This document shows, piece after piece, positions 5,003 through 27,186 of a stretch of DNA of 32,000 bases. Numbering within the stretch: position 1 is the stretch's first letter; every line of letters starts with the position of its first letter. The notes beneath the pieces were generated by a model, which was not told where the DNA came from, did no database searches, and saw nothing but the letters and a program-made list of their open reading frames with translations. Position numbers and translations under genes: made by a program. Origin of the DNA: Candidatus Peribacteria bacterium (GTDB taxonomy: Bacteria; Patescibacteriota; Gracilibacteria; BD1-5; UBA6164); assembly GCA_023898505.1 (NCBI GenBank), contig CP060226.1, forward strand, positions 538,152 through 570,151, read 5' to 3'.

Positions 5003-5110
5003 AATCCCCTCCTTATGTTTCTCCCTTTTTCAAAGGGAGTACTCGAGATACGAGAGGGAGGGATTATTATTTATCCCCTCTCCCTACGGGGGAGAGGGTT
5101 AGGGTGAGGG
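5003..5110. repeat. Nested-hairpin repeat cluster, family B (CCCCTCTCCC...GGGAGAGGGG type)
   Basis: aatcccctcc pairs with ggagggatt. Internal hairpins are ctcccttttt caaagggag and cccctctccctacgggggagaggg, followed by ttagggtgaggg. The cluster is closely related to 14941-15045. Confidence 0.8.
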
Positions 5111-5890
5111 CTAGATACTGAATCTATAAAAAGATTCAAGACTATTTTCTCCGATAAAATCTTTTACTTTCACATTTGGATCAACCACAAACGCTTGTTC
5201 AAGCAATGAAATCTCAGATTTAAATTTCCCCATCTTTCCTTCAATAATCTTCAATAATACATCATCTGTTTTATTTGCCATTTTTGGATCATTTTTCATC
5301 ACTTCAAGTTGGATAGACTTTTCTTTTTCTACCACATCTTCTGAGATATCTGAAGTTCTCAGGTAGTCAGGATTTGTAGCAGTAACATGCATCGCTACTT
5401 GTCTCATCTTCCCAGCGTCAGTACTTGCTTCTTTTGCTACTACTACTGCGGCTAACTTCCCATTTGAGTGTACATATGACTCAACTCCAGCTCCTCCAAT
5501 CACTTTTGCTTCTTTAATCACCATATTTTCCCCAAGTTCAAGAACAGATTCTTGTTTTAGGTTCTCCATTTCGTCCATAGATTTTCCTGCTTTCAGCATC
5601 TCCATCAATGTATTCATCAATTTTTGAAACCCTTCTGATTTTGCCAAAAAGTCAGTTTCACAAGAAAGTGAAATCACATAACACTTCCCTCCTTCGCATT
5701 CTACTTTAATCCATCCTTCTGAAGTCTCTCTGTCTGCTTTTTTTGCTGCAGAAGCAAGACCTTTTTTTCTGAGTTCTTCAATCGCTACTTCTATATCTCC
5801 ACCGGCAGCAACCAGTGCCTTTTTACACTCCATCATTCCGATCCCAGTTCTTTCTCTGAGTTCTTTTACCATACTAGCTGTTATTTCCAT
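5111..5890 (-). CDS. tsf: Translation elongation factor Ts
   Basis: The N-terminus MEITASMVKELRERTGIGMMECKKAL is the classic EF-Ts UBA-like domain. There is no in-frame TGA, and the stop is TAG. Confidence 0.95.
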   Translation of the reverse strand: MEITASMVKELRERTGIGMMECKKALVAAGGDIEVAIEELRKKGLASAAKKADRETSEGWIKVECEGGKCYVISLSCETDFLAKSEGFQKLMNTLMEMLKAGKSMDEMENLKQESVLELGENMVIKEAKVIGGAGVESYVHSNGKLAAVVVAKEASTDAGKMRQVAMHVTATNPDYLRTSDISEDVVEKEKSIQLEVMKNDPKMANKTDDVLLKIIEGKMGKFKSEISLLEQAFVVDPNVKVKDFIGENSLESFYRFSI

Positions 5891-5914
5891 AATCTGCTAT
5901 GTTATAAAAATAAA

Positions 5915-6268
5915 TTAAAAATCTGTGTTGTTCTTTTTCGTATCTTTCTCAACCATAGAATCGATAATCGCATCAAATCCTTGAATATCTACAGAAGAAC
6001 CGGCGTACACCTTGTGAGCAAAGTATACACAGACTCAAACATAGAGAATTCACCAGAGCATAGAGAGAAACCCAAGCCCTAAAATACGTAATACTATTTC
6101 TCCGAAAATATATCCTACCAACAAGAGAATCCCATAATGAATATGTTTTTGGAAAAGAGAACTCCTCTCTTTCTCAATCGCCATCATGAGAAACGCTCAA
6201 AATGGTAGATAGGAAAGGGCATATTTAAATCTCGTATTGTTTGGAATCTTTTGTTGTGTTTCTCCCAT
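5915..6268 (-). CDS. Small membrane protein (117 aa), DUF4870-like
   Basis: The frame from ATG (6266-6268) to TAA (5915-5917) is open with three in-frame TGA. The sequence YALSYLPFGAFLMMAIEKERSSLFQKHIHYGILLLVGY and two hydrophobic segments support the call. The gene sits between rpsB and tsf. Confidence 0.65.
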
Positions 6269-6291
6269 ACGCTACAAAAAGAGGCTAAGAA

Positions 6292-7110
6292 TTATGCTTC
6301 TGTACTTTCTACTTCTTCTTCTTTCACTACTTTCTTTGGTGCTGCTGTTTTTTTCACAGCCTTTGGTTTTTCTCCACTTACTTTTTCTTCTGCTACTTTT
6401 TTAATGGCATTTTTTGCTTTTGGAGCAGATACTTTTACTCCAGAGATTGCAGATTTAATAGCTTCAGCTACATATTCCAGAGACTTCACAGCATTTGTAT
6501 TTGCTGGGATGATATTGTCTACTTTTGTATCATCTCCGTTGGTGTTTGAAATCGCGTATACTTTGATACCAAGAGAATTTGCTTCTCTAATCGTTTGTTC
6601 TTCATATACTCCATCAACAACAAAAATCACTTCTGGAACTTTTTTCATTTCCTTTACCCCCTTAAATGCCTTATCAAGTTTTTCTAACTCAAGAAGTTTT
6701 GTTGCCTTTTCCTTTTTTGTAAGGATATCAAGTCCTCCGGTTTCAGAGTCTTTTAATAGACGAAGATAGGTAGCAATTCTAGTTTTGATAGTTTTAAAGT
6801 TTGTTAAGAGTCCTGGAACCCATTTTTCTGATACATAGTAGTGTCCAGTATCTGCTGCAAGTTTGCTAAATGCATCTCTTGCTTGAAGCTTTGTAGCGAC
6901 AAAAAGTACTTTTTTCCCTTCTGCGATAAGCTCTTTAAGTTCTGCAGATACTTCTTCGATTTTTTGAGCAGTTTTTACTAAATTGATAACATGGATTCCA
7001 TTTACTGAACCATAAATATACGGTCTCATTTTTGGACTCCAAAAGTTTGTTTTGTTTCCAATGTGTAAAAGATTTGCAAACATATCGTTTAACTGTTGTT
7101 TTGTTGCCAT
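6292..7110 (-). CDS. rpsB: 30S ribosomal protein S2
   Basis: The sequence LLHIGNKTNFWSPKMRPYIYG...INLVKT...FVATK is canonical S2. A Lys/Ala-rich C-terminal tail follows. There is no in-frame TGA. Confidence 0.95.
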   Translation of the reverse strand: MATKQQLNDMFANLLHIGNKTNFWSPKMRPYIYGSVNGIHVINLVKTAQKIEEVSAELKELIAEGKKVLFVATKLQARDAFSKLAADTGHYYVSEKWVPGLLTNFKTIKTRIATYLRLLKDSETGGLDILTKKEKATKLLELEKLDKAFKGVKEMKKVPEVIFVVDGVYEEQTIREANSLGIKVYAISNTNGDDTKVDNIIPANTNAVKSLEYVAEAIKSAISGVKVSAPKAKNAIKKVAEEKVSGEKPKAVKKTAAPKKVVKEEEVESTEA

Positions 7111-7140
7111 TTTTTCCTTAAATATTAAAAATTAAATCAA

Positions 7141-7287
7141 GGCGATCCCGAGTACTCGGGACAGGAATGCCTTTATGAATATACATCTGTTCCCAAAAAC
7201 TTGGGATTCCCAGATATATTTCTGTCATTCCGTACTTGATACGGAATCATTATTTATGATCCTGAAACCAGTTCAGGATGACCGTCA
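7141..7287. repeat. Hairpin-repeat cluster including a family A unit (7223-7282)
   Basis: The unit is tgtcattccgtacttgatacggaatca, a spacer, then gatcctgaaaccagttcaggatgac. Upstream hairpins are tcccgagtactcggga and ttcccaaaaacttggga. The cluster lies between the S1 gene and rpsB. Confidence 0.8.
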
Positions 7288-7291
7288 AATA

Positions 7292-8524
7292 TTATTTTTC
7301 TTCAGTTGAAGCTTCTTCTGTCTTTTTCTTTTTTGTTTCTTTCTTTGCTGCTGCTACTTCTTCATCAATCTTATCTTCTTGAGATTTTTCTTTCTTTACC
7401 TTTGGCTTTTCCTCTGCTGGCTTTTCTGGAGCTTCTTGAAGAGCTTTAAGTGAAAGACCGATTCTCTTTTTATCTGGTTCAAAGTTGATAATCTTTGCTT
7501 CTACTTCTTCTCCTACTTTCACAAAATCTCTGATATCCTTTACAACTCCGTGAGAAATCTCAGACAAGTGAATCAGTCCTTGAATCCCTCCTTCTAGATC
7601 CATAAAGGCACCAAATTGAGAAATTCTTGAAATTGGAGCTTTGATAGTATCACCAAGTTTGTATTTTCTTGCCAATACTTCCCATGGGTTTTCTTTGAGT
7701 CTCTTCATAGAAAGAGAAATTTTATCTCCTTCAAGTCCGATAACTTTTACTTTTACATTCATCCCCACTTTTGCAAATTTTGATGGATCATGTACATGTC
7801 CCCAATCGATCTCAGATACGTGAACAAGTCCTTCAAGACCATTAAAGGTAACGAAAAGACCGTATGACAAGATACCACTTACTACACCTTCTACGACATC
7901 ACCTTCTTTTAAAGTCTGAAGTGCCTTTTCTCTTGATTCTTCGATTGCAGCTTTTTCAGAGAAGATAATTTTCTTCCCAACTTCATCTACATTGATAACA
8001 CGAACCTTAAATGCTTCACCAACCAAACCTTGAAGGTGTTCAAGGATTTTTTCTGGGTCAGCTCCCTCAACTCTTGGATAGTGAAGAGGAGTCAGTTGTG
8101 AAACTGGGATAAACCCTTTCAGTCCATCGATATCCACAAGAAGACCTCATTTATTTGCTTCGGTTGGTCTCACAGTAATCACCTCAGAAGAATCAAAGTA
8201 TTTACTCAAGTTTGTCAGACTCTTAATCTGATTTGCTCTTTTCAGAGACAAGATAAGGAGTCCTCTATCAATACTATCACCAAGTACCATAACATCGATT
8301 GGCTGACCAGCAGCTAATTCTCCTAATTCAACAGTATTTCCAAGTTCTTTACTAACAACAATTCCAGTAAACTGATTGTTTACATTTACGAGAATATTTT
8401 TCTTCTCGATTTTGATGATGCTCCCAGAAATCACTTCCCCTTCTTTTGGGTACTTAATCTCCGGCGATGCTTTAAACAGCTCTTCAAACAGAGCCATATC
8501 ATCCTGTTTTTGTGCAACAGTCAT
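7292..8524 (-). CDS. rpsA: S1 RNA-binding domain protein (30S ribosomal protein S1-like, about 4 S1 domains)
   Basis: Track ORFs 8147-8524 and 7292-8137 share a frame and are joined by one TGA (8147-8149). This gives ...TEANKGGLLVDIDGLKGFIPVSQL, the conserved KGG of an S1 domain. Repeated GxVxxxxxxGxFV motifs are present. Confidence 0.9.
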
Positions 8525-8669: not shown

Positions 8670-8724
8670 GGTATCCCTTTCTGTCCTCCGGACATCTTTC
8701 CCTTAAGCCTAAGGGCAAGAAATA
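8670..8724. repeat. Double-hairpin repeat, family C
   Basis: The sequence gtatccctttctgtcctccggacatctttcccttaagcctaagggcaagaaata nearly matches 27131-27186 and is related to 26559-26616. Confidence 0.8.
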
Positions 8725-8865
8725 ACATAAATTCTATCGTACGTTTACATTGCTCTTATTCATCGCAATGTAATTTTTCTTTCAGAAAAACCCTCCATTC
8801 AAATCCTAATAATTATTACTTCTTCTAGCTATTCACTTTTCTCTATTCACTATTCATCTAGATTA

Positions 8866-9891: not shown

Positions 9892-9900
9892 ATATAAAAA

Positions 9901-11211: not shown

Positions 11212-13197
11212 TTACTTCTTCAATAAATTTACAAATGCCTCACTTGGGAGACTTACCCTACCAAACTGCTTCATCTTTTTCTTTCACTTTTTCTGTTTTT
11301 CAAGGAGCTTTCTCTTACGACTTATATCCCCTCCATAGAGTTTTGCGGTTACGTCTTTTCTGAGGGCCGATATATCTTCACGAGCTACGATCTTTCACCC
11401 AACTGCTGCCTGTATCTTGATCGCAAAGAGCGCTCTTGGCACCACTTCTTTCAGTTTTGCACAAACTTTTCCTCCAACATAGTGCGCCTGCTCACGATGA
11501 CAGATAAAACTAAGAGCATCGACTTTCTCATCAGCAATCAGGATATCAAGTTTCACCATATCATCTTCTTTAAACTTGATAAATTCATAGTTCATCGATG
11601 CATATCCAGAACTCAGTGATTTTATCTCATCATAAAAATCTCCTATGAGTTCATTCATCGGAAGTTCATACACAAGCATCACACGCTCACTATCAATAAA
11701 CTGCTGATTTTTAAAAATTCCGCGGCGTTCTTGAGATAACTGCATAAGTGTTCCGACATATTCTGTCGGAGTAATAACCTCTACTTTTGCGATTGGTTCT
11801 TCGATACTCTGGTACTTTTCTCTTGCCGGGAGATCTTCAGGATTTGAGACATATGCATAGGTAAATACAGAATGTCATCCCGTACTTGATACGGGATCAT
11901 TATTTGTACTTCTACTTTTTCATGATTCTGAATCCGCCGAGTTCTCGGGGCGCGCAAGTTCAGAATGACAGAGTTCAGGTTTAAACCTTGAATACTCACT
12001 CGTCTTATCTCCGATAAACTTAACACGATAGGTTACCTGTGGGGCGGTCATAATCACATCCATATCAAACTCTCTGAACAAACGTTCTTTGACAATATCG
12101 AGATGCAATAACCCAAGAAAACCACACCTATACCCATGTCCCAGTGCTGGAGAAACCGATGATTCAATACTGAGTGCCGAATCATTGAGCACGAGTTTTT
12201 CTACGGCATCTTTCAATTGTGGGTACTCAGAACTATCCATCGGAAATATACCCGCAAAGATAAATGGCTTTGCCTCACTAAATCCAGAGATAGGTTTCGC
12301 ATTTTCTGGTTTTTCTTTTGGTCAGAGTGTATTTGCTGGTTTCCAAAGAGTATCTCCAACTTTTGCGTGTTCCAAGGTTTTCAAACCCGTTACTACATAG
12401 CCTACCGAACCGTTTTCTATGATACCATTGGATGTATAGCGAGGAGCAAAGTACCCAACATCAAGCGCCTCTATCTTTTTCCCAGTATGAAGAAAGTGCA
12501 GCATATCCCCTTTACGAATCTCTCACTGAAATACCTTTACATACGACACTACTCCACGATATGAATCATACTGACTATCAAATACCAAAGCTTTCAGTTC
12601 ATCATCCTGACTATTCACTATTCACTGTTCACTCTTCTCTTTATTATATACCTTTGGCTTCCTCACTCTTTCAATCACCGCATCAAGTACCATATCTACA
12701 TTTTGACCCGTTTTTGCAGAAATTGGGATAATTTCATCTTCGCTACATCCAAGCAAATTGATAATTTCTTCACTGACTCTTGGGATATCTGCTGCTGGAA
12801 GATCAATCTTATTTAATACTGGGATGATATCCAGATCATTTTCGATCGCCATGTAGACATTAGAAAGCGTCTGTGCCTCAATCCCCTGCGTCGCATCTAC
12901 AACTAATAGAGCTCCTTCAACAGAAGCCAGGCTGCGAGACACTTCGTACTGAAAATCTACATGACCCGGAGTATCAATAATATTGAACTCATAGCCCTTC
13001 CATTGCATACGTACCGGTTGCAATTTAATCGTAATTCCGCGTTCCTGCTCAAGCTCCATCGTATCGAGCATCTGACCATTTTTCATCTCACGCTTATCCA
13101 GTGTTCCTGTGATTTCTAGGAACCTGTCAGCCAAAGTTGATTTCCCGTGATCTATGTGCGCAATAATACAAAAATTTCTAATCTTTCCGAGTTCCAT
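11212..13197 (-). CDS. lepA: Translation elongation factor 4 (LepA), with an in-frame repeat insertion
   Basis: The N-terminus [20 protein letters not shown] is a GTPase G1 motif, and the C-terminus [27 protein letters not shown] is a LepA hallmark. Five track fragments share one frame and are joined only by TGA. Confidence 0.92.
11873..11970. repeat. Family A double-hairpin element inside the lepA coding sequence
   Basis: The sequence tgtcatcccgtacttgatacgggatca...catgattctgaa[tccgccgagttctcggggcgcgcaag]ttcagaatgaca has the same architecture and orientation as 20079-20155. Confidence 0.85.
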
Positions 13198-13349: not shown

Positions 13350-13430
13350 ATTCCTGCACCCCAAGAGTATTGGTTCGAGCAATGGTTCATAAACTCACCA
13401 AGTCTCACTGGCACCTACGCAGGAATGACA
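13350..13430. repeat. Family A-related hairpin with an expanded loop (intergenic)
   Basis: attcctgc and gcaggaatgaca are the same arms as the hairpin at 20363-20386, but here they enclose about 60 nt. Confidence 0.55.
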
Positions 13431-13525: not shown

Positions 13526-13942
13526 ATGGCAAAAAAAATACAAGATATCTACCTCTTTGAAGGGATGGATTCAGACTTCATCACGAAACTAATCGATAAC
13601 TCTCGTACGGAGAGAATACCCGCAGGACAAGCAATTATCGAGCAAGGAGAAAGTTCTGACAACTACGCCTATGTGATAGAAGAAGGAAGCGCCAAAGTCG
13701 ATATCAATGGACAAGAAATTAATACCCTTGAAGAAGGAGATGTATTCGGAGAAATTGCACTTATTACCCATGAACCAAGAACCGCTACAGTCACGACTCT
13801 AACAGAAGTAAAAGTGCTTAAAATCAACAAAAAACTCCTTCAAGATGTCCTCAACACGCTTCCAAATGGAGAACGCCTTAAAAGTATGATTCGAGACAGG
13901 ATAACAATGAATTTACAGAAAGTAAATCATATCTCGATGTAA
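13526..13942 (+). CDS. Cyclic nucleotide-binding domain protein (138 aa)
   Basis: The sequence IYLFEGMDSDFITKLI...GDVFGEIALITHEPRTATVTTLTEVKVLKI is a canonical cNMP-binding fold. I chose the ATG at 13526; the track's longer N-terminus is repeat-rich non-coding sequence. Confidence 0.8.
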   Translation: MAKKIQDIYLFEGMDSDFITKLIDNSRTERIPAGQAIIEQGESSDNYAYVIEEGSAKVDINGQEINTLEEGDVFGEIALITHEPRTATVTTLTEVKVLKINKKLLQDVLNTLPNGERLKSMIRDRITMNLQKVNHISM

Positions 13943-13969
13943 AGAAGCTCCGTACGGAGCTTCTTTTTT
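13943..13969. terminator. Bidirectional rho-independent terminator between convergent genes
   Basis: The stem agaagctccg / cggagcttct has a 2-nt loop (ta) and is followed by a T-run. Confidence 0.7.
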
Positions 13970-15434
13970 ATCGAACCATCACCCAGACAGATCCCCCCAC
14001 CCCTGACGAAATCCCATATGAAGATGCGAGATCTCCTTTTGCAAAACCATGTGTAGTATTGTTTTGATAATTGTTAGCCCAATAATTCCAACGACTCACT
14101 AGAGAATCACAGTTACCCGCTCTACAGCCATGTGCATCTGAAACTCTATATACTGCTATCTCTTCTGTAGAATTAATACAATCTGAGGTACCCAAATCTA
14201 TACCCCCATATGTACTGTCTCTTCGATTTGTAATCAATGACTCTTTATAGGTAGCATAATAAAACCAATACTTTCTTAACCCATTATCATAGGTGTAGTA
14301 GGCTTCATTCTGAATGCATGTTTGTGGAGATATTCAGGTAGACTCAAAAGCACGCGATTGAATAAATCAATTTGGCACAAAAAATCCATAGTACTTCGTT
14401 GTATCTCCATCTATCCCCATAGATACTTCTGTAAACATCAGTTCAGAGGCATCAAGTGAATAATCATATCCTGGGTTTAGGTTCGTAGGAGTATCTCCAA
14501 TAACTGCATCGAAGAAAGTAGCACTGGGATAACTACCATCTGTTACTCATATGAGCATCCAACCGCCTCAGTCTGTAGTCATATCACAGTATACGGAAGT
14601 TTCTGTACTTCCATCTGGGTAAATAGTGTATATATCGGACCCTAAGCTTTTTCCCGCATATAATATATCAAGACAACTTGTAGGATTACTCATATGTGCA
14701 GTGATGCTCAGTACATACAACGTACTTCAAGTTCCCACTGTACTTTTCACGTCTGTGAAATTTGCCGTATAGGTGTCTGTAGTAAGGGCTATGTCAAGGT
14801 AACCTGAGTTTGTTACCGTAGTTACCTCTTGTATCGGAGCATTGGTTCAGGACTGGGTGAGGATACCAAGCTTATGTCCATTTACCGTTGAGTATCTGTT
14901 TGTGTAGTCTGTCGCTGCATGGGCTTGTGGGATGAAAGCTCCCCCTAGCCATGATATCTCCTCACCCCAGCCCTCTCCTTTGAGAGGAGAGGGAGTTATA
15001 GTTCCCCCTTCTCCCACAAGGGAGAGGGGGCTAGGGGGTGAGGGTATTTGTGTAAGAAGGTTTTCCTCTTCTTCAAGAAATGCCATCAATTGGAAGTATT
15101 TCTTATCACTCGTGAGGTAGTAGGAAAAGTAGGTGGAGTCTTTTGGGTCTTTTCCTCCTTTGGTAAAGTCTATCGTTTCAAGAACTCCTTCTCCAGCATA
15201 GCCTTGGTAGGCAATAGTCGTTCCATTAGACTTTACTTCTACGTAGTCATCTGGAAGAGGGAGGTCTTTTTCTGTTCTATAGAGTTCAAGTCCATCATGG
15301 AGTGCCGTAAGTTGAGAGATACGATTCGTATCTCTCGTTCAAGCGAGGTAGGAGCTATATGAGACAAAGCCTACGGTAGAGAGGATACCGAGGATTACGA
15401 CGACTACGATAAGTTCGACTAATGTAAACGCCAG
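13968..15434 (-). CDS. Type IV pilin-like protein with a C-terminal fibrinogen-related domain (FReD); the start codon is uncertain
   Basis: The N-terminus AFTLVELIVVVVILGILSTVGFV is a class III signal/pilin helix. The C-terminal sequence SCLDILYAGKSLGSDIYTIYPDGSTETSVYCDMTTDGGGWMLI is the fibrinogen C-domain signature, with TGA at 14578-14580 as a Gly in DGGGW. No ATG, GTG or TTG lies upstream in frame, so I placed the 5' end at CTG 15432-15434. Confidence 0.75.
14941..15045. repeat. Family B nested palindromic element inside the pilin-like coding sequence
   Basis: ccccctagcc (14941-14950) pairs with ggctaggggg (15030-15039). Inner hairpins are ccctctcctttgagaggagaggg and cccccttctcccacaagggagaggggg. 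The element is related to the intergenic copy at 5073-5110. Confidence 0.85.
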
Positions 15435-15440
15435 CTTGTC

Positions 15441-15500
15441 TGGTCCCGAATGCTCGGGAAGGGTGAATCCTTTACTCCTTCCGTTCGTAGGAAAGGATGT
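15441..15500. repeat. Double-hairpin repeat in the 5' region of the pilin-like gene
   Basis: The hairpins are gtcccgaatgctcgggaa and tcctttactccttccgttcgtaggaaagga. Confidence 0.6.
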
Positions 15501-15583
15501 TTATATTTGTTTGCATACAAAAAAATAGTTTACATATTCACTCCTAGTATAGCGAGAAAGAAAGGAAGAAAAAATGAGGGAAT

Positions 15584-15618
15584 AAAAAACCTCTTTACAA
15601 AATGTAAAGAGGTTTTTT
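15584..15618. terminator. Bidirectional rho-independent terminator after the large pilin-like gene
   Basis: The stem aacctctttaca / tgtaaagaggtt is flanked by an A-run and a T-run, immediately after the TAA at 15620-15622. Confidence 0.7.
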
Positions 15619-15619
15619 A

Positions 15620-18600
15620 TTATTTAAACGGATACTCTGCAAATGCCATATAAATAAATGTTCACCCGGACTCATTATGAGAAGTCCCTCTAAGTTTAAA
15701 TCCATTCGAAAGAAAATCAGCCCAGACAGCATATTGTTCAGCATTATCGGCACTTGCCATAAGGTAATCGCTGATAACATTATAAGGAGAACGCACCGAA
15801 TCTATCATTCACCACTGACTGGTAGAATCTACTCTTTTTGAAAGTATAAATTTCGGCTTAAACCCAGTATATACAAACGGACCATCAGTATTTCCATTTC
15901 CGGTATAACTTCCAAACTTTGAAAAACCAGGTTTTTCAGAAAAAAGATACGCAACGTGTTGTGCACCAACTACATTTGTTGCCGTTGAATCTCAAACTGT
16001 AAAAAAATCATTATCTGGAAGAGTATCATTCCAGTGATTAAAGGTAGAGGGGGTCAAGTCCTCTACATCATTTGTATCTAGAAGCAATCTATATTTTTCT
16101 GAACTAACTCAACCATTAAGATCTTGATGATATAATGGCCAATTACTTACAGAATCTCTATTTTTAATAATCATGACATCCGGTCTTGTTCATAAATTAT
16201 GCGGAATCTTCTTTCCTGCAACACCATCTCATATATACGCGACAATATCAAATCCTGAAGTAGCTGATTCTTTCCAATTCCAAGCCACATAAGTATTCGC
16301 AGCACTATTATAATCTTGTATGGATCCACTTAAAGTAAATCCATTAAAATCAAACGATGTAAAAAAACTAGGAGCCGAATATTCTGAGTCTGTAAGATTT
16401 GAACGTAATTCTTTATCTACTCCTCTGATAGAATCTCGTAACATGTGATCAGCACCAGTTACATCTCTGTTTTTAATCCACACCAAATCTGGCTGAAAGT
16501 TAAGGCCTGTAATATGATGATCTGTTAAGCCGTTTCATGCATAGGTAAGTACATCAAAGTATGCATTTGCATCTTCAATCACAGAAGCATATCCCGTTAC
16601 TAAATTATAGGCATAACTCTGAGGAATAAAATCTGAACTCCAACGAGCTATATCCTTTGAAATACGTATTTCATCCATATATCCATCAAAATAATCACTC
16701 CCTCCACCGTATTTCTTCCCAATAAAGATATCACTATTTAAGTCAGGAAGGATATTACTATCAATCGGAGTAATAGTACTCAGAGGTAAAGCAGAACCAT
16801 TTACATATATACTAAAACCTGTTCCAGACCTGACCGCTGCCACATGATACCACTCTCCTGTACTGAAATTATGCATAGCACTATACTCTGCCAGTATATT
16901 GGAACCACCATTTTTTGAAGTAAAATAGATATCTGTCGCATCCATAGAAATCGTGGTACGGAAGTTTGAGTTTGGACTATCATACATCTGTCCTATAAGT
17001 CCAGCAGAACCGAGACTATTAAAATATATCCAGAAGTCTATCGTAAAATCTCCATCAGCAAAATCCCAGTAAGCAGAGTCTGGTATTTGTAAATAATCAC
17101 CATTCCCATCAAATGCAATACTGGTTGTTCCAATTTTACGTTCATCAGTAGTATGATGTGTGTCGCCATATACCTGTATCGTATGTGCTGATCATGAGAT
17201 ATCTTGGATATCTGTGGATCCATCAGCAGTATTGGAGCGGATAAGAAGCGGGGTATTGGTGTCATAAACAGGAGTAGAATCTGGGAGATTTGAAGTAGAC
17301 AGAGCGGTGAAAGCTATTGGCGGTTCATATTTAAAATATCATCCCGCATTTTCATAATACGTAAGTCAAGATTGTCATCATTGTCAAAAGTTTGAGTTTA
17401 CACTTGAGTTTCGATAATGGTTTATAGCGAAAGTTCAAGATGCGTCTCCTGTCATCGAGATAATTGCCGTTGGATTTACCCCTTGAGAAGGGTTTCCATC
17501 AGTACTTCCGGGGGTGCTTCAAAACCAGACACTATTTTTTCAAAACCATACCTTTCAAGTACTAAAATCTGCTGCAATCATCACTGTATCCCCTACCTCA
17601 ATTTTTGGATATCCTCATACCCAAGACCCATTTTTATAAATTCTCCCATCAGCCGTACCATAGTAGTTTGCATATGAAGCTGATACAAGATTATTATCAC
17701 TATTATAGACTATAAACTCTGGTCTACTAAGCTCAGTAACAGTATCAAGAGAGACAATAGTATGTTCTGTATAATACTTCCCAGAGGCACCGATAGTTTG
17801 AATCGTACTCAAAAAAAATTCATCAGCAGAACTACTCGTATTTCCAATTTGTAAATTTCCATGACTAAAGTCAGAATACTGATACGGACGGAGACTATTC
17901 CAGACAGCAAAATTATTCTGAGGCGTATCAATCACTTGATCAGTACTATCAAGATTATTCGCAGAAAAGTGATGGGCATTTCCACTCGTATCTTTTCCTA
18001 AAATCGAACTATCCGAAAAATTCAGATGAAATCCGTTGGTTCCATAGGTTCCTGTGTATTCTTTTGGTATCCATTTACCATTAGATTGAGATTCTCAGAA
18101 ACTATCTGGAGTGAGTGCTTGTCCATCGATAAAGTATACTTCGGTCATATATCCATCTAAAAAATTCTCAATATTATGCCCCAATGTTTCTTCAAATGCT
18201 CACACATAATGGTTTTGTTGACTATTTATCCACGTTTCATAGTTTAGACTTGGATATGTTGATAATAACAAACCTGTTATTTCTTCTCCATTAACAAAGA
18301 TGGATACCGATGACGCTGTTGTATCAACGGAAATTTGTATATGGTACCAGCTACTTACATCACGAAATTTTGCAGTAGTCTGAATATCTATCTCATGTGC
18401 TCATCAATCATGGTCAGAAGCAAATCTTAGAGTATCATCACTCATAAAAGAGAAAAATGTTTTATTACTATTTCCTCATGACGTTGCAGAAAACAATGTT
18501 TGAGTTCTCTCAAGACCCGATCTTTTTACCCATCCGCTCCACGTCCACTTTCTTCTATCTCAATCCTGAGATGGGGTTCTAGATAAATATGTATCATCTG

Positions 18601-19474
18601 AACTATTAAATCTCAGAGAATTCGTAATTTCAAAAGCATTGCTCACCGTATCCAAGGAATCACTACTAAAGTCACAGGTCACTACCACTGCTCCTGTACC
18701 ACTTGGAAACACTGTAAACTCTCCTGTAGTCCCAGCAAGACTTGGTAGTACCTGCAGTAAATCATCACAATTCTCTACCGTCTTTCCTCCCTGCGATACC
18801 ATATTTGCAAGTGGCGCAAGATTAGTAGCATCTCCAGATATGGTCGTTTCTGGATCTATATGTCCGACAAAATTATCAGACGTAGTTCCAATATCTAGAC
18901 CTCACGAAGCAATAATTGCAGGTAACTCTTGAATTGGAGTATTACTCCCCGATTGTGTCAACACACCAAGAGAATCCCCGGTCACATACACATATCGTTC
19001 ACTATAATCAATATCGCTTGCATGAGCAATACCTCACCCTAGCCCACTCCTTAAGGAACTTGGAGTGATCATAGCATTCAGATATTCATCTGTTTCCAAA
19101 AAACCAAGAAGTTGGTAATACTTTCTATTTTCTCCTACATAATAGGTATAATAGGCATCATCTTGAGGATCCTTTCCGCCATCTGAAAATCAAATCGAAC
19201 CAAGCACTTGTTCGCCAGCATAGCCTTGATACCCAATCGTCGCCCCACTATAACTTACGGTTACATCATCATCGGGCATTGGAAGCAAACGCTGTACACG
19301 ATAGTCTTCTAGCCCTGATCGGATGTTTCATAATACGCTAATTCTATTACCATCTCGTGCTGAACTGATATACCCCGTATAGGTAATAAAAGAAATCCCC
19401 GCCAATATAATCAGTATGGTCGTCGCAACCAAAAGCTCCACCATCGTAAAGGCTCAAGCATTACGCAGTATCAT
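15620..19474 (-). CDS. Giant pilin-like surface protein (about 1284 aa) with LamG-like, SPRY and LamG-like domains plus a duplicated C-terminal module
   Basis: The N-terminus is MILRNAGAFTMVELLVATTILIILAGISF. The first roughly 120 aa are paralogous to gene 13968-15434. The SPRY signature is GKYYTEHTI...GDTVMIAADFSTGKVWFGKNS...NFGQGG...YFKYEPP. The LamG signature is GEWYHVAAVRSGTGFSIYVNG...FDGYMDEIRIS. All track fragments share one frame and are joined by TGA. An alternative ATG lies at 19537. Confidence 0.8.
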
Positions 19475-19479
19475 ACCCC

Positions 19480-19535
19480 TATCCCTCTCGTCCCTCGAGT
19501 ACTTTCCCCTTACAGGAGAAAGAGTTATATCTTTC
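19480..19535. repeat. Hairpin repeat in the 5' leader of the giant pilin-like gene
   Basis: The sequence ccctatccctctcgtccctcgagtactttccccttacaggagaaagag is related to families B and C. Confidence 0.55.
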
Positions 19536-19651
19536 ATATTCTTAAAGATATTGAATAAAACTAAATTTTACAAGATGAGACCCCGAATTCACCGAGATAT
19601 ACGAGTATGGAAATAACATCCCTCCTCCGTATACTTCTCCCCCTCATTTAT

Positions 19652-20713
19652 CTATGTACCTTTTCCCTTTTCCATTCTTCCCTTTCGTCTTTTCTCTTTT
19701 ATCTTTCATCTTTCATCTATTTCCAATTCTTTCACTACCTCTATCCACTCTTCAATTCCCAATTCTTCTCCCCTCACAGTATCCGAAATACTCAGTTTTT
19801 CAAATATCACTAGTATTTTCCCCTTGTCATATCCACTATTTAATAAGTTCTTCAGTAGCTTTTTTCTCGGTTCACGAAAACCCTGTTTAATAATTTCTAA
19901 AAATACTCCATCATCGATATCTCTATAATTATCATGAGTTATAAAGTGAAGAACGATAGATTCTACCTTTGGCGCAGGATAAAAGTGCTCTTTCGGCACA
20001 ACACAAACTTCCCTCACAAAACACTTTTTTGCGATAAAAAGTCAGAGGACTGAAGAGCGTATTTTTTTATCACTTCTGTGTCATCCCGTACTTGATACGG
20101 GATGATAATTTGTACCTTTACATTTTCATGATTCTGAAACAAGTTCAGAATGACAAATAGATCTCTGTCAGCTTAAAATTTTCCTCCCCACATCCTCCTG
20201 CATCATAATCGCCATCTCTTGAGGAGATGTAGAAACTTCATAGAGAAAGTGCCTAAGAATCGGAGAAGTGATATAATACGGGATATTTGCGATGACTGAG
20301 TAATTAATTTGTCATTCTGAACTTGATTCAGAATCATTAATAGTATCTTTACTCTTTCATAGATTCCTGCCTCCGCAGGAATGACATACGTGAAATATCG
20401 GTTCATACTTAAGGACATCGATATGCTCGATGTTAACATTCAGTCCTTCAATTTGCAATTCTCCTGTCTGTATTCTCTGCTCAAGGATGGTGATCATATC
20501 TGGATCAAGCTCCACGAGAGTCAAAGATTGTGGTATTTGCGTCAGGAGTTTTTCGGTGAGTGCCCCATACCCTGGACCTACTTCCACGATATTTTTTCCA
20601 TCTACCTCAATAGCTGTTGCAATATTTTCTAGACTTCCTTCATCTACAAGAAAATTTTGTCCCAAAGATTTTTTTGCGTGGAGTTTATATTTTTGTATAC
20701 TTTGTGGAAGCAT
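19652..20713 (-). CDS. rsmA: 16S rRNA (adenine1518/1519-N6)-dimethyltransferase RsmA/KsgA, with two in-frame repeat insertions
   Basis: Supporting motifs are KKSLGQNFLVD, VEVGPGYGALTEKL, ANIPYYITSPIL and FYPAPKVESIVL. I chose the ATG at 20711-20713. The frame reads through several TGA to TAG at 19652-19654. Confidence 0.88.
20079..20155. repeat. Family A double-hairpin element inside the rsmA coding sequence
   Basis: The sequence tgtcatcccgtacttgatacgggatgataatttgtacctttacattttcatgattctgaaacaagttcagaatgaca is near-identical in its arms to the lepA copy. Confidence 0.85.
20310..20386. repeat. Family A variant double-hairpin element inside the rsmA coding sequence
   Basis: The sequence is tgtcattctgaacttgattcagaatcattaatagtatctttactctttcatagattcctgcctccgcaggaatgaca. 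Confidence 0.8.
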
Positions 20714-20765: not shown

Positions 20766-23700
20766 ATGCAATTGATTCCAGATCTTACTCTCTGAAAAAA
20801 ATGGTGACTACGATTTTTGAGCGTACTCATTATCCTAGTATCACTCTGACAGTCGGCTTTTGCCCTCACTACAAGCACCAATTATGCAGGAACGGCAAAT
20901 GATCTCTTGGATAACAGTTTTCTATGGGTAACCCCTTCAAATGCCACAGGTGATACAACAGGGACCTCAGCTAGCAATACCATTACTACGAGAAATACCA
21001 ATGGAAATACGCTTGCGCTTACGACTTTCGGATTTACCTCTGGAGATATACCAAGTGGAGCAACAATTGAGGGGATACAAGCAGAAGTAGAGTGGCTCAG
21101 TAGTAACAACCGTATGCAGGATCAGGTAGTACAATTAACAAAAGACGGAACCACAGGGGTCGGAAGTAACTATGCAAATAACACTGGTCTTACCACTAAA
21201 TGATTCACGACATACGGAGGAACGACCGATCTTTGGGGAACCACCTGGACTCCAAGTGACCTTAGCTCTTGAAGCTTCTGAATCCTCCTCCAGTATAGAA
21301 ATAGAAGAAACTCAGCACAAACAGTAAATATTTATAGAGTACGCATCACTGTAAGCTACTCGATTCCAAGTGGTCCTGGGGGTGTTACGGGTAATGTATC
21401 CATATGGCTCAAGGCAAATGAAGGAACCAGCACAACCACGGATGGAAATGCTCTTTCTACCTGGTCTGACCAATCAGGAAATGGGTATGATGCCACAGGA
21501 GGATGAGCAACCAGACCAAGGTTTCGTGATAATACTACTGATAACATCAACTACCATCCAGTTGTCGACTTTAATGGAACCTCTCAATATTTACAAAATC
21601 TGGCAAATGGAGCCAGTTCAGAAAGTGCATTTATCGTCCTCAAACCAGTAAATGGGGTAAATGGGACTGCTTCGTACTGAGTCCCTTTCGGTTGGGATTG
21701 TCTCTCTGGAAACCTCAGTACTGGAACCTGCGGACTCAGCTTTGCAGGAATTACTCTTGGAGCCTTTACCGCAGCAATACCAGATGAAGTAGTAACCCTA
21801 GCACTCGGTTCATCAACCAACTGGAGATCCTCACAAACATGACTTGCATCGTATGATATTGGTGAAACGATGCTTCTTGTTTCAAACACAAATGCGGGTA
21901 ATACCGCAACTGATATCTATGAAAAAGGACAGCTCGTGAGTAATTACTCCGTCAACACCTTTCAGACACTTGCAACCGCTGATTATAATATCGGGCGTTC
22001 ACCAGATGCAGCAAATCCATTTTACTACGGAGGAACTATTGCTGAAATTATAAACTTTAGTTCACGAGTGACAGATAGCGAAAGACAACAGATAGAATCC
22101 TACCTCGCACTGAAATATGGAATCACGCTCAATGCTGGATGAACCGACTATATCGCCTCCGATGGAACCACGACTATATGGTCCACAAGCACGGCGGGGA
22201 GCTATACAAATAGTATCTTTGGTATTGGACGTGATGATAGCTCAGAACTCGGACAGATCACCTCAAAGTCCATGAATCCAGATGGGATCGTCACTGTGGT
22301 GGCTGTCGGAGAAGGAACTAATGCTACGCCAGCATTTGTAGACATAAGCGATAAAGAGTTTCTTACAATTTCTGACAACCTCTGAGGAAATAGTTGGGTC
22401 GCTACCGATAGCCCCCTTGGATATGATATCCTCGATAGAAAGTGGTTGTACCAAGAACAAGGAGATGTCGGAGCAATAACCCTTGATATCGATGTAGACG
22501 ATGCTGATTTCGATATACCCGTGCTTAATTCATGAGTGAATTATTTTTATATCTATGATAGTAATGGGAATGGAAGTCTCTCAGATGAGGTCCCTCAAGT
22601 GATGGTAAACACCAGTGGAAGTATCTGGGAAATGGCAAGCCTCAGTGTCACCAGCGGACGTATCTTTACCTTTGCTACCCTTTCATCGAGTAACAACATC
22701 CCGACAGATATTAGCATATCGAGTACAAGTACCAATGAAAATGTTGCGTCTGGAAGTCTTATAGGAACATTTACCACTACTGATCTTGATATTACTGATA
22801 CCCATACCTATAGTTTCGTTGCGGGTACATGAGATGACGACAATACCCTCTTTACCATAAGCGGAAGTGAACTTCATATTGCTGAGTCTCCAGACTATGA
22901 ACTCAACACTAGCTACTCTATCCGCGTGGAAACCGATGATGGAAATGGAGGGACTTTTCAGAAATCATTTACTATCTCGGTAAATAACCTCGGCGAAACT
23001 ATTACCACCATCATCGATTTTGAAGTCTCTGGAAAATATAGTGTGACATCAGGAACTTGGAATCGAAATACTAATAATCCTCAAGAATCAAGCTTTGCGC
23101 TTGAAAGTGACAATGGTTGAGGAGCAAATACTCAGTCCTGTTTTGAAGTCACCCATAACACGAGCGTCACGGGAAGTATCGACTTTTATTATGCCGTCGA
23201 TTCACAGGCATGAGGAGATACCCTAAATTTTTATATAGATGATGTAGAAGATACAAATTGGTCAGGAAATATTGCCTATACAAACTATACTGTCTCAGAT
23301 ATTGCGGGAGGACCTCATACCTATAAATGGTGTTATATCAAAAATGGAAGTGTGAATACTGGTCTAGATGCTGCTTGGATCGATTATATCGTATTTACCA
23401 ATGCGGCGAGTGATAGCACCCCACCAACTATATCAGTAACAGCTCCATGAAGTGGTTCACTCCTCCCAAATGCAGATTTTACTCTAGATTTGAGCTATAG
23501 CGACGCCGAATCATGAGTGAATACTGGGAGCATATCAGTAGTACTCAGAAAGTGGAATGGGAGTTCCTATGGAGTTGATATTGCTCCAACCTATGTAAAT
23601 TTTGGTGGTGCTACGATCGGCGCTTCTACAGCATCATACCCAGTTACAAAAATGGGCTATGGGAGATATATATTTGAAGTGAGTATCAATGACAATAGTA

Positions 23701-24137
23701 GTAACAACGGAACAGGAGCTTCCCTACTCTATCTTGATGAACCTGAAATCATTATCTCAACAGGAGCTATCGATATCGGGTTTCTTGATGCAAATGGAGT
23801 AAGTTTTAGTAGTCAAGAGTTAACTATTACCGTGAATACTGTTTGAGCTGCCTATGATCTTGTCCTCGTCAATGAGAACCTCCTGAGCTACTCTGGTACG
23901 ACGATTTTGGATTGGGATGGAAGTACTGGATATGGATATGAACAAAGCCCCTATACCCTCACCGTCACGCCGATAGGAACTGGGGCAATCCTTGTCTCTG
24001 AACCAGCAAATCTCAACGTCGATGGAAATAGAAATACCAATATTTACTCGATACAGCTTTGATGACAAGTAGATGAGCAGCAAGCCGCTGGAGACTATAC
24101 CGGAAATATACAGTTTTTGCTTGATGTAGATTATTAA
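20766..24137 (+). CDS. Large secreted surface protein (1123 aa) with LamG/ConA-like and cadherin-like domains
   Basis: The ATG at 20766 gives a signal-peptide-like N-terminus LRFLSVLIILVSLGQSAFA. The LamG end motif is FYYGGTIAEIINFSSRVTDSERQQIESYLALKYGITLN. The cadherin-like repeat is PTDISISSTSTNENVASGSLIGTFTTTD...YSIRVETDDGNGGTFQKSFTISVNN. Five track fragments share one frame. Confidence 0.8.
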
Positions 24138-24985
24138 AACATCATTACAACGATCCCTATAGCGATAATAAAAGCAAATAACAATTTTTTCTTGAGATGC
24201 TTCTCCTGAAAAAACACAGTTCAAAATATAATCGCCCAAAACATAGCCCCTGCTCGTTTAAGAGTAGTAGCCTCACTTGCATTGAGATATGCATAACTAT
24301 AGCTAATAAGGGCCGTAGAAATAGCAATTGATAAACCTAAAATGCGGTACATTTTATCTTTCAAGATATATCATAAAGCATTGTGCCTATAATAATACGA
24401 ATGTCCGATAAAAAAGTATAAAAACACCGAAGAAATAGCAAATGACTGATCTACCTCTATCGAATTTCAAAAATGCGTAATAGAATATTTAAAAAGTGAA
24501 ATCGTAATAACCGCATTTACTGCTGTAAATAATACATAATACCACCCGGTAAAATCAAGCGTTTTATTTTTTGTATTAAAAAACAAAAACGACACAACAA
24601 TAACCCCAATACCTAACAATGAAAAGTATGTAAATGAATATCCCAGACTAATATCAACCATAACCATGAGCGGAATGGTTAAAATACGAATAACAGAAAA
24701 AGTGCTACGATCACTACATTTTAAAGCCTGGAAACTAACATGTGCTTGTAAGACTTCAAGAAACATCCTGATAGTAAGCAAGCCAATACTTTCAGGATTC
24801 ATAGAGAGATCAAAATTATCACTTGACCGTTTATAACCTGCCAAAAGTAAAAAAATACTGAGCGCAAAAAAATTTGTAATTGTCCCAACTCTGAAGATGT
24901 TACTCTCTTTCGATTTATGTTTTGCAATACTATCTTCTACTTCTCAGAAAAAAGTACCAACAAATCAAAGAATCCATCAAATCAT
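24134..24985 (-). CDS. DMT/EamA-like integral membrane protein (283 aa)
   Basis: I checked codon by codon that the frame is open from ATG (24983-24985) to TAA (24134-24136). The protein is multi-spanning and hydrophobic. Its stop overlaps the stop of the convergent gene. Confidence 0.65.
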
Positions 24986-25068
24986 AATAAAATCTGGCTA
25001 TTTGTTGCATACAATAGAAATATATGTGATAATAGAGATAGAATCCTATTTTACAATAAAAAAATCAG

Positions 25069-26385
25069 ATGAAATCTGAAAAAATAGCCTTTTTATCACC
25101 AGATCTTTCTCACCTCAAGCGTATTATTTCTCGCCTTGAAATACAAGTGCTTATAGGTCTTGGTCTCTGAATCTACGCAGGAGTCTTCTTTCCAGAAATT
25201 GTCGGAAATTTTTCATGGATGGGTGAGCTCTTCATGACTCTTCTGAAGATGTTTCTTGCCCCCCTCCTCTTTTTTGCTATTATCAATGCAGTACTTGGTC
25301 TCGGAGACCTCAAGAAACTTGGAACGCTCGGGACAAGAACTCTCGCGTACTATATGCTCACGACTACTCTTGCTATTGTTCTTGGTATGATTTTGATGAA
25401 TATCTTTTCTCCAGGAACAGGCGTGCACTTCAAACAATTCGAAAACTTTAATTCTGCAAGTGTAGAAGGGTGACTCACATTTTCAAACTTTATCATGAGT
25501 TTATTTCCTAGTAACATGATCGCCTCATTTGTAAGCCTCAATGCTATTCAAATCATCTCTGTAGGAATCATCCTTGGGATTTTCATCATGCAAAGCGCTT
25601 CAAAATCTCATATCAAACAACTAAAAAATATATTTGATACTCTCTATAACGCCATTCTCGCATTTATTCGTTTTGTCGTAACACTTACTCCTTTTTGAGT
25701 ATTTTGAATCGTGTCCAATGTCGTAGCAGTCAACGGTTTCCAAAGTATGCAAGACCTCCTTCCTCTTGTCGTTATCACACTTGTTGCTCTTGCAATTCAT
25801 TCAGTCATTACTCTACCAACTATTGGTATATTTATCGGACACTTTAATCCATGGACCTATTTTCAGCAAGTAAAAGAAGCAGTACTTCTCGGATTTTCTA
25901 CTTCTTCTAGTAGTGCGACAATGTGAGTTTCTATGCATGTAGCGAGAGAAAATGCAAAGCTGAACAACGAAGTAGTAAATTTTACTTTTCCTATTGGCAC
26001 AACTGTAAATATGGATGGAACAGCACTCTATCAAGCGCTTGTGGCCCTCTTTGTTTCACAATTTCTTGGAATCGACATCTCCCTCGGACAACAATTTACT
26101 ATCGTCATCATTGTCATCCTAGCTTCTATTGGTGCAGCAGGAATACCTGGGGCGGGAATTATTATCCTCACGACAGTATTTCTCACCATATGACTCCCTG
26201 TAGAAGCAATCGGTATCATCCTTGCTGTTGATAGAGTCCTCGATATGTTCCGAACTGCGGTAAATGTCTGGGGAGACTTACTCACCGCAAAAGTTATCAA
26301 TACCTTTTATGTCCGTTATCTCCAAGAAAAAAACCTTGCTCAGAAAGTAGCAGAAAAGATACAAGGAAAGCCTAAAGAAGTATAG
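25069..26385 (+). CDS. Dicarboxylate/amino acid:cation symporter (DAACS/GltP family)
   Basis: Supporting sequences are LKMFLAPLLFFAIINAV, NMDGTALYQALVALFVSQ, ASIGAAGIPGAGIIIL and DMFRTAVNVWGD. Four track fragments share one frame and are joined by TGA. The stop is TAG at 26383-26385. Confidence 0.88.
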
Positions 26386-26402
26386 TAAATATATTTTTCA
26401 GA

Positions 26403-26438
26403 AAACGAGAGAAAGATTTGCATTTCCCTCGTTTTTTT
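26403..26438 (+). terminator. Rho-independent terminator
   Basis: An imperfect stem aacgagagaaag / tttccctcgtt is followed by a T-run. Confidence 0.55.
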
Positions 26439-26558
26439 ATACAATGCACGAGCTTCTAAAAACGTATATCGTATCCTTGTCAAATTTGCTTGTTTGTCCC
26501 GAAAACAAATACAAAAGCAACTGCAAGGATTTCTAGGAACAATGTGTTTCTCAATATA

Positions 26559-26616
26559 GTTCCCTTTTCCTCGCGATATTGGGAGGTCTTCCCCTTACTT
26601 CTAAGGGAAAGAACGG
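26559..26616. repeat. Family C double-hairpin repeat upstream of rplK
   Basis: The sequence is agttcccttttcctcgcgatattgggaggtcttccccttacttctaagggaaagaacgg. Confidence 0.7.
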
Positions 26617-26656
26617 TTGAAGATACAAACATTGTTATTTTTTAAGTATAATTATT

Positions 26657-27121
26657 ATGGCAAAAGAAATTAAAGGGTATATCAAACTTCAGATTAACGG
26701 AGGTCAAGCAAACCCAGCTCCTCCAGTAGGTCCAGCCCTTGGACAATACGGAGTACCAATCCAAGACTTTACCAGTCAATTCAACGAAAGAACAAAAGAT
26801 AGGATGGGAGTAAAACTTCCAGTAGTGATTACTGTATACGATGACAGAAGTTTTGAGTTTATCGTAAAACAGCCACCTGCAGGAGTACTCATCAAAAGTA
26901 AACTGAATCTAAAAAGTGGTTCAAAAGTTCCTCATAAAGATAAAGTAGGACACCTTTCAGTTGAACAATTAAAAGAAATCGCAACAGAAAAGATGCCAGA
27001 CTTAAATGCGGTAGATCTTGCTGGTGCAATGAAGATTATTCAAGGAACTGCAAGAGCTTCAGGAGTTACGACTGATATAGATGGTCTAACAAAGAAAGAA
27101 GTGATTGAAAAACTTGGGTAA
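26657..27121 (+). CDS. rplK: 50S ribosomal protein L11
   Basis: The sequence [25 protein letters not shown] is canonical L11. There is no in-frame TGA. Confidence 0.95.
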
Positions 27122-27130
27122 TATCAAAAA

Positions 27131-27186
27131 TATCCCTTTCTGGTCTCTCGACCATCTTTCCCTTACCTCTAAGGGAAAGAGTAATG
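27131..27186. repeat. Family C double-hairpin repeat
   Basis: The sequence tatccctttctggtctctcgaccatctttcccttacctctaagggaaagagtaatg is a near copy of 8670-8724. Confidence 0.8.

Follow-up and report, generated by a model that had tools for sequence, protein, structure and literature searches.

The stretch of DNA described here, referred to as the window, comprises 32,000 nucleotides from the genome of a Candidatus Peribacteria bacterium (GTDB lineage Bacteria; Patescibacteriota; Gracilibacteria; BD1-5; UBA6164), and corresponds to positions 538,152 to 570,151 of the forward strand of contig CP060226.1 in NCBI GenBank assembly GCA_023898505.1. Along with genes such as tsf, rpsB, lepA, ksgA, and rplK, several tRNA genes, and two pilin-like genes, the window contains short hairpin-bearing repeats of three families, here named A, B, and C, and a number of the A and B copies lie in frame within genes once the codon UGA is read as glycine. 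The best overall explanation, which we regard as probable, is that they are selfish DNA repeats resembling the REPINs and the Rickettsia palindromic elements (RPEs), belonging to three unrelated families in a genome that uses genetic code 25.

With the standard bacterial code the window appears nearly without genes, having short open reading frames (ORFs) only, and reading UGA as sense restores long continuous genes: the content of ORFs of at least 120 amino acids rises from 4,198 to 15,618 amino acids. In lepA, the UGA codons 225, 601, and 638 stand opposite conserved glycines when the protein is aligned with the Aquifex LepA, and the close relatives of the window LepA are from Gracilibacteria only, the best of them at 81% identity. 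The window uses code 25, in which UGA is glycine, and the genome is almost entirely coding. As a side remark, many database entries for LepA and KsgA orthologues read UGA as tryptophan (code 4), and accordingly display W where G is conserved, and annotation with code 11 affected both the gene map of a preliminary description of this window and its labelling of the repeats as intergenic. That description had placed the intergenic copies in leaders or between operon genes and, working from a code 11 gene map, it missed the in-gene copies. With code 25 several of its “intergenic” hairpins fall within genes: A2, A4, A5, B2, and B3 (three of the five A loci and two of the three B loci) are within ORFs.

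The unit of family A is a 28-nt module (TGTCATTCTGAACTTGTTTCAGAATCAT, the presumed target of an Ssn-type nuclease) made of TGTCAT, a stem of 6-8 bp, a loop of 4-5 nt, the return stem, and ATCAT, as in TGTCAT-TCTGAA-loop-TTCAGA-ATCAT. Two such modules inverted around a spacer of ∼20 nt constitute a doublet, typically 77 nt in length, and the family is represented in the window by four inverted doublets of 61-98 nt and one solo module. These loci and their host genes are the following:

7223-7283, no strand assigned: A1, short doublet of 61 nt with no central spacer, intergenic, between the stop of the S1 gene and the start of rpsB
11212-13197, minus strand: host gene lepA (EF4), 661 aa under code 25
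11873-11970, minus strand: A2, doublet of 98 nt (77 + 21), in frame in lepA as a 33-aa segment
13350-13430, minus strand: A3, solo module, TGTCATTCCTGC...GCAGGAATC on the minus strand, intergenic, between lepA and a cNMP-binding gene
19652-20713, minus strand: host gene ksgA/rsmA, 353 aa under code 25 (typical orthologues ∼270 aa)
20079-20155, minus strand: A4, doublet of 77 nt, in frame in ksgA, 26 residues, 84.7 bits with the doublet model
20310-20386, minus strand: A5, doublet of 77 nt, in frame in ksgA, 26 residues, reading CHSCGGRNLGKSKDTINDSESSSEGQ

All 10 modules of the window conform to (T/G)GTCAT, a 6-8 bp stem, a 4-5 nt loop, the stem, and ATC/ATG, with two loops expanded, and the stems are AT-rich (TCTGAA, CCCGTA, TCCTGC). 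The pattern for the 28-nt module, TGTCATYCYGWACTTGWTWCRGRATSAT, has 6 matches in the window vs 0.00 expected. The loci at 7223, 11873, 20079, and 20310 are linked by both a repeat finder and self-blastn, and a search of the window with a covariance model for the doublet has four matches at E ≤ 2e-8, namely 20079-20155, 20310-20386, 7223-7283, and 11873-11970, and no others. Regarding the five A loci listed in the preliminary description, four are hence doublets recovered by all three approaches, and the fifth, 13350-13430, stands as a solo module seen by sequence only and missed by the doublet model (A3; ATTCCTGC...GCAGGAATGACA). The loop expansions reported at 11912-11960 and 13358-13418 are both real and unique: the 21 extra nucleotides of A2 form a GC-rich mini-hairpin nested in its right-hand loop, the loop of A3 carries a unique 61-nt insertion, and when the two insertions were considered as copies of another repeat, no further copies were found.

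The stems of family A covary. Paired positions account for 94% of the cells, and in 9 of 16 pairs both partners are changed, a level attained in 0 of 500 shuffles; compensatory changes of the same type affect 3 of the 4 pairs of hairpin 1 in family C. Within the genes, the covarying changes of family A are non-synonymous, with P/S paired with G/E, meaning that pairing is kept at the level of the nucleic acid and not of the peptide.

In its genic copies the family A element is read in one hydrophilic frame, TGT CAT ... GAA TGA CAN, or CH[P/S]EL...SSEGQ, which would be closed if UGA were a stop, since its conserved terminus reads GAA-TGA-CAN; A4, for instance, reads as CHSELVSESGKCKGTNYHPVSSTGGH and has two in-frame UGA codons. 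A2 falls in a gap with respect to the solved LepA structures, the window LepA having 661 aa vs 627 aa for a typical orthologue, and A4 and A5 occupy two loops of KsgA that are absent from the solved KsgA structures and from most Gracilibacteria orthologues (∼270 aa). The 77-nt doublet also lies in frame in PBP1A, QueA, ArgS, and UvrB of other Gracilibacteria metagenome-assembled genomes (MAGs), as confirmed with Pfam, and in UvrD-like, ELP3-like, and Cys-rich ORFs of Gracilibacteria MAGs, these last being identified by eye only. When a module is counted as genic if its ORF runs on without a stop for 60 codons or more to either side, 19 of 33 modules (58%) are within long ORFs in the Gracilibacteria loci, whereas the count is 1 of 53 in standard-code phyla, a share that agrees with the 2% reported for Neisseria, and all 19 are in the frame given above.

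The same loops have been occupied in other ways in related genomes, as seen from the sets of LepA (P0003-P0092) and KsgA (P0142-P0218) orthologues. Gracilibacteria LepA orthologues of unusual length have different inserts at the same two loops, and the DNA of these inserts is palindromic, comprising B-type doublets, a doublet of the SRM type with other stems, or a plain 12-bp hairpin; in KsgA, the two loops carry differing inserts, beside orthologues that are insert-free. For P0142, a KsgA orthologue whose inserts occupy these two loops as well, the AlphaFold model has a mean pLDDT of 80, with values <50 essentially only within the two inserts and values of ∼90 or above for most of the conserved fold. 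Indirectly, by way of this orthologue, the model suggests that the inserts lie in surface loops and are compatible with the fold. The simplest reading is a repeated and independent occupation of permissive loops; as an alternative, new elements may have inserted into, or replaced, pre-existing ones, which would also explain the mosaic of module types.

It is conceivable that the in-gene segments are protein features, such as linkers or interaction motifs, selected for themselves and palindromic by chance. The constancy of the hydrophilic frame and the recurrence of inserts at the same loops of LepA, KsgA, and the Cys-rich protein would agree with it, but the same sequences also occur between genes (A1, A3, B1), the hosts are as unrelated as PBP1A, QueA, ArgS, UvrB, LepA, and KsgA, and the variation is compensatory in the nucleotides and non-synonymous in the peptide. 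Moreover, from one lineage to another the elements held by these loops are unrelated, and the structural model shows the inserts as loops of low confidence; we consider this explanation very improbable. A profile of the element-encoded peptide (doubled), compared with 5.8 billion proteins, retrieved tiny spurious ORFs only.

A further concern is whether in-frame copies arise from assembly or binning, with repeats collapsed into genes. Two Logan short-read assemblies (SRR12358675 and SRR14234112; L079-L082) are 100% identical to the window, and their contigs end inside A1 (window 7252) and at the first bases of A5 (window 20312), as expected for a multicopy repeat. These breaks are the observation that such an artefact would account for, but conserved protein sequence continues in one frame on both sides of the copies, and numerous independent MAGs show the same phenomenon, also on contigs 0.24 to 1 Mb long, making an artefact extremely unlikely.

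Family A is widespread beyond the window. In a scan of one genome per species the 28-nt module was found at 78 loci, against a rough estimate of ∼0.004 chance matches, and its hosts include many Gracilibacteria, other Patescibacteria, Bacteroidetes, Alphaproteobacteria, Chloroflexi, Campylobacterota, Melainabacteria, and others. The fetched loci hold 34 inverted doublets, and the 77-nt form is present in at least 8 Gracilibacteria MAGs. In four of these loci, namely L003 (Gracilibacteria), L008, L053, and L068, the module is adjoined by an ORF of ∼90-107 aa encoding a single GIY-YIG domain (PF01541; the two proteins that were scanned match at E 2e-12 to 4e-16), and it is the only gene identified beside the module, the other flanking genes not having been surveyed. 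Inverted A-type modules flank the GIY-YIG gene of L003 (226-505) on both sides, a further module, a GTTAT variant, lies downstream, and a UGA codon encodes the G of the gene's catalytic “YIG” motif.

This arrangement recalls the one described for the nuclease SsnA (Chenal et al. 2025, PMC11893778), a small single-domain GIY-YIG enzyme (cd10448) that binds a hairpin called NTS, one of the NTS/SRM (Ssn-related motif) repeats (CGTCATTCCCGCGMAVGCGGGAATCYRG; CGTCAT-TCCCGCG-loop-CGCGGGA-ATC), and cuts nearby, and whose gene can be found in an NTS-ssnA-NTS order. SsnA acts on single-stranded DNA only, in one orientation, and not on RNA, and 2% of the NTS copies of N. meningitidis are reported within genes; the paper mentions neither Patescibacteria or Gracilibacteria nor in-frame copies (PMC11893778).

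Family B has a different signature. Its module is a GC-rich hairpin, CCCTCTCC-loop-GGAGAGGG, followed by the tail YTRGGGTGAGG, and it has 3 matches in the window vs 0.02 expected. The copies and the genes that hold them are:

5070-5110, plus strand: B1, module, hairpin CCCCTCTCCC/GGGGGAGAGGG with tail TTAGGGTGAGGG, intergenic, between the tsf stop and tRNA-Trp
13968-15434, minus strand: pilin-like gene 1, AFTLVE N-terminus, Fibrinogen_C match, start codon unclear
14955-15045, minus strand: B2, doublet (a pair of modules in inverted orientation), lying in frame within pilin-like gene 1 as ...PSPPSPLSLVGEGGTITPSPLKGEGWGEE...
15620-19537, minus strand: pilin-like gene 2, large paralogue of pilin-like gene 1
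19028-19072, minus strand: B3, solo module, CACTCC..GGAGTG with GGCTAGGGTGAGG, in frame in pilin-like gene 2

The preliminary description had proposed family B at 5003-5110 and 14941-15045. A common module does join the two loci, and self-blastn gives no link between them; the longer “B1” is rejected as a single element, its left half being weakly C-like and only its right 41 nt corresponding to the B module. B3 was missing from the earlier list and sits at the site homologous to that of B2. At this site pilin-like gene 1 is ∼27 residues longer than its paralogue, and its ORF continues past B2 into the Fibrinogen_C match. As for the beginning of pilin-like gene 1 (window 15380-15520, minus strand), there is no ATG, GTG, or TTG near the conserved AFTLVELI N-terminus, the first ATG being codon 138 of the stop-to-stop frame, and a hairpin-rich stretch, named C4, is located just upstream; the gene may use an unusual start or have lost its leader.

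Family C stands apart from the other two. It consists of a 59-nt core with two hairpins, strictly intergenic, with the core motif RTCTTYCCCTTA-N4-TAAGGGVAAGA and an invariant 11-bp inverted repeat, TCTTTCCCTTA-N4-TAAGGGAAAGA. With a covariance model built mostly from sequences outside the window, the matches are:

5010-5067, minus strand: weak C-like element, the left half of “B1”, 15.7 bits, E ∼0.1
8670-8728, plus strand: C1, 72.9 bits, intergenic, between tRNA-His and the S1 gene, antisense to both
19478-19530, plus strand: C5, marginal and C-like, 15.9 bits, E ∼0.09, antisense to pilin-like gene 2
26562-26620, plus strand: C2, 42.2 bits, ∼40 nt upstream of the rplK start codon, sense
27129-27188, plus strand: C3, 63.6 bits, between the rplK stop and tRNA-Glu, ending ∼35 nt upstream of the tRNA, sense

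Hence, the copies that had been placed at 8670, 26559, and 27131 are genuine, the one at 19480 is marginal, and the supposed relative at 15441-15500 (C4) is rejected, as it has neither a match to the model nor a similar sequence in anything fetched. Pilin-like gene 2 has two candidate starts, at 19537 and 19474, and C5 lies in the interval that separates them; the element at 5010-5067 ends 9 nt upstream of tRNA-Trp, in the sense orientation, and has 22 nt in common with 19482-19503. Overall, the earlier view of at least three hairpin families with conserved arms and variable loops applies well to A and C, and more weakly to B, for which it is limited to the level of the module.

A metagenome scan yielded 54 loci with the C core, nearly all from one sample. 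The C-rich contigs belong to a second UGA-sense organism (L083-L136, JGI Ga0256843 and related samples), with a GC content of ∼21%, for which 244 kb of fetched contigs include at least 60 copies of the core, here within an element of ∼115 nt with the inverted ends AGGAAAATTAAAATAACC / GGTTATTTTAATTTTCCT. In these contigs 0 of 37 copies are in ORFs, and neither A modules nor GIY-YIG genes were found, so that family C is independent of family A. Of 50 oriented copies of this organism, 37 point at a downstream gene on the same strand, often 56-60 nt from its start codon. In L120, from a related genus, a C copy has the syntenic site and orientation of C1 (tRNA-His, C, S1 gene, rpsB), and in L105 a copy lies 15 nt upstream of a tRNA, to be compared with the 35 nt between C3 and tRNA-Glu. 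The invariant inverted repeat and the covarying hairpin 1 suggest a cis-acting element of DNA or RNA. It may be a mobile core bearing a promoter or operator, or else a leader structure, and any function would be deduced from position and sequence.

Such positions could speak for hairpins acting at the RNA level, as leaders, operon-internal processing sites, or terminators, a role that the preliminary description had offered alongside that of selfish DNA. A1 between the S1 gene and rpsB, C2 shortly before rplK, C3 shortly before tRNA-Glu, the covariation of the stems, and the typical spacing of the same-strand C copies from the start codons in the second UGA-sense organism would all be in keeping with it. 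Nevertheless, five copies are in frame within ORFs, the doublets are near-palindromic with copies in both orientations relative to transcription, and C1, like its counterpart in L120, runs antisense to the S1 gene. Furthermore, an identical 28-nt module adjoins GIY-YIG nuclease genes across phyla, what SsnA binds is the single-stranded DNA form of NTS and not the RNA (PMC11893778), no T-run follows the hairpins, and Rfam, searched with gathering thresholds and permissive E-values around the C copies, returned tRNAs only. A general RNA-level role is therefore improbable: the selfish part of the earlier proposal holds, and its RNA part fails for A and B on account of the in-frame copies, the GIY-YIG link, the variable orientation, and the lack of an Rfam match.

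If the repeats are DNA elements, the question becomes what moves them. Classical MITEs (miniature transposable elements with inverted repeats) or repetitive extragenic palindromic sequences (REPs), moved by a DDE or RAYT (Y1) transposase with no relation to Ssn nucleases, would account for the terminal inverted repeats TGTCAT/ATGACA, the REPIN-like architecture of the doublets, the ∼115 nt element with inverted ends around the C core in the 21% GC organism, and the fact that B and C have no identified partner protein. However, there is no target-site duplication at 20 doublets, the flank repeat being 0-1 nt in 16 of the 20, with only a T(-1)/A(+1) preference, there is no transposase in the window, and the GIY-YIG gene is the sole one identified beside the A module in the four loci whose other flanking genes were not surveyed. 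On balance, we hold this explanation to be unlikely.

We favor instead the reading of the repeats as selfish elements of the REPIN/RPE kind, in which the 77-nt doublet is the dispersed unit of family A. To spread, the doublets would pass through intermediates of single-stranded DNA, aided by an Ssn-type nuclease whose gene lies in another part of the genome, and the copies would exchange modules among one another; we infer this mobilisation for the present organism. UGA as a sense codon opens the hydrophilic frame, with the result that insertions of 26 or 33 codons in permissive surface loops could be tolerated and translated. Family B follows the same design with another signature, being likewise read through in the two pilin-like paralogues, and family C, which favors sites immediately upstream of genes, probably works in cis at the DNA level, as an element bearing a promoter or operator. 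More broadly, the reassignment of UGA to glycine may have let selfish doublets of the Ssn type, which in standard-code bacteria are almost always found outside genes, enter coding sequence across the Gracilibacteria and strike the same permissive protein loops time and again; this is a tentative proposal, in which the causal role of the code change is presumed.

Several points weigh against the reading of the repeats as mobile selfish elements. The window has no ssn (GIY-YIG) gene, and family B has no identified partner protein. No empty-site polymorphism was found, the nearest LepA orthologue being at 81% and the two short-read assemblies at 100% identity, and we thus infer mobility rather than observe it. 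A length of 77 nt is not divisible by three, which leaves the exact inserted unit undefined, and translation of the inserts is deduced from the open frames and the annotation of orthologues. The published SRM string, HGTCWYN(0-2)YYVSBRHN(0-5)WNVSBRGN(0-2)RNCYNB, has 0 matches in the window (shuffle mean 0.01); when the string is parsed by hand, the sole apparent mismatch of modules of the CCCGTA type is the Y that follows ATC, and those of the TCTGAA type seem to mismatch at the S positions as well. Finally, C1 points away from its neighboring genes, a poor fit to a simple promoter.

The remainder of the window provides some context. Two AT-rich islands, at window 1-4941 and ∼27300-31300, have a GC content of 21-28%, adjoin tRNA genes, and resemble integrated mobile elements. 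The first, which stops at tRNA-Trp, has genes for a serine recombinase (Resolvase), an HTH protein, DUF5906, and a DnaG-type zinc ribbon; the second follows tRNA-Glu and encodes Fic and an AEP-TOTE/ResIII helicase-primase. As previously stated in the preliminary description, neither island has a copy of the hairpin repeats (covariance-model scans for A and C), which is consistent with a recent arrival of the islands. The rplK gene is followed by tRNA-Glu and the mobile island, rather than by rplA (window 27121-27300), and has a TATAAT just 4 nt before its ATG (window 26620-26660), and its mRNA may be leaderless. Further near-perfect palindromes that are outside all the families were detected by self-blastn at 13941-13966, 15581-15621, 31572-31609, and 27296-27348. 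The first, at the end of the cNMP gene and pilin-like gene 1, and the second, at the end of pilin-like gene 2, resemble ordinary terminator hairpins, and the palindrome at 27296-27348 abuts tRNA-Glu at the island boundary.

Protein-coding palindromes have so far been treated as a peculiarity of Rickettsia; here they occur in a candidate-phylum lineage and can be linked with a family of nucleases whose characterisation dates from 2025. The presence of UGA in the frame of every genic copy offers a concrete link between an alternative code and the tolerance of mobile DNA. If this holds true, a change of code would have altered the rules between a genome and its DNA parasites, and these parasites would be a steady source of loop insertions in proteins. 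In practice, annotating such genomes with code 11 hides the in-gene repeats, short-read assemblies of Gracilibacteria break at these elements, and alignments and phylogenies will be skewed by the orthologues of LepA, KsgA, ArgS, and UvrB that carry inserts. In addition, the Ssn/module pairs of Gracilibacteria may add AT-rich specificities to the proposed toolbox of nucleases for single-stranded DNA.

Regarding known systems, no description of these elements in Gracilibacteria was found in the literature, and the “hypervariable repeat” reported with a closed Gracilibacteria genome (PMC6851277) is a tandem PTD repeat, not one of these elements. The doublets share with the REPINs, REP-RAYT systems, and BIMEs of enterobacteria and pseudomonads the hairpin modules with a short conserved flank, the inverted pairs around a spacer, the mosaics of module types, and the lack of target-site duplication. 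They differ in that they have no GTAG-type REP signature and that the associated gene is a GIY-YIG one; there is no RAYT (Y1) transposase among the genes of the window, to which the RAYT search was confined. REPs are, moreover, extragenic by definition. With MITEs such as Correia, ERIC, and BOX elements, the likeness lies in the small size, the terminal inverted repeats, the occasional in-frame fusions with host ORFs, and, for family C in the 21% GC organism, a length of ∼115 nt with inverted ends, whereas target-site duplications are lacking and no parent insertion sequence has been identified.

The RPEs (Ogata 2000, 2002; summarised in PMC10969869) are palindromic repeats of ∼150 bp that lie in frame in unrelated housekeeping genes, where they are translated. 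In behavior the resemblance is close, as the window elements, too, are in-frame palindromes, predicted to be translated as extra segments that are compatible with the fold, and absent from orthologues, and both have intergenic copies. The window elements are shorter (∼45-98 nt), and the host is a Patescibacteria lineage with code 25, in which the frame contains UGA and would be closed under the standard code. With NTS and SRM, family A has in common the conserved 5′ (C/T)GTCAT, the short hairpin, and the 3′ ATC tail, in multicopy and oriented modules that adjoin or flank small GIY-YIG genes in the four fetched loci. Its stems are instead AT-rich, its tail is ATCAT rather than ATCY, its modules are set in inverted doublets with a fixed length of 77 nt, and the share within ORFs is 58% in Gracilibacteria vs the 2% reported for N. 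meningitidis. Judging from these sequence features, we treat family A as an AT-rich variant of the NTS/SRM kind, and not as a proven member. The parts are thus known, namely the behavior of the RPEs, the NTS/SRM-Ssn module, and the REPIN doublet, and the new idea is that code 25 lets hairpin elements live inside genes.

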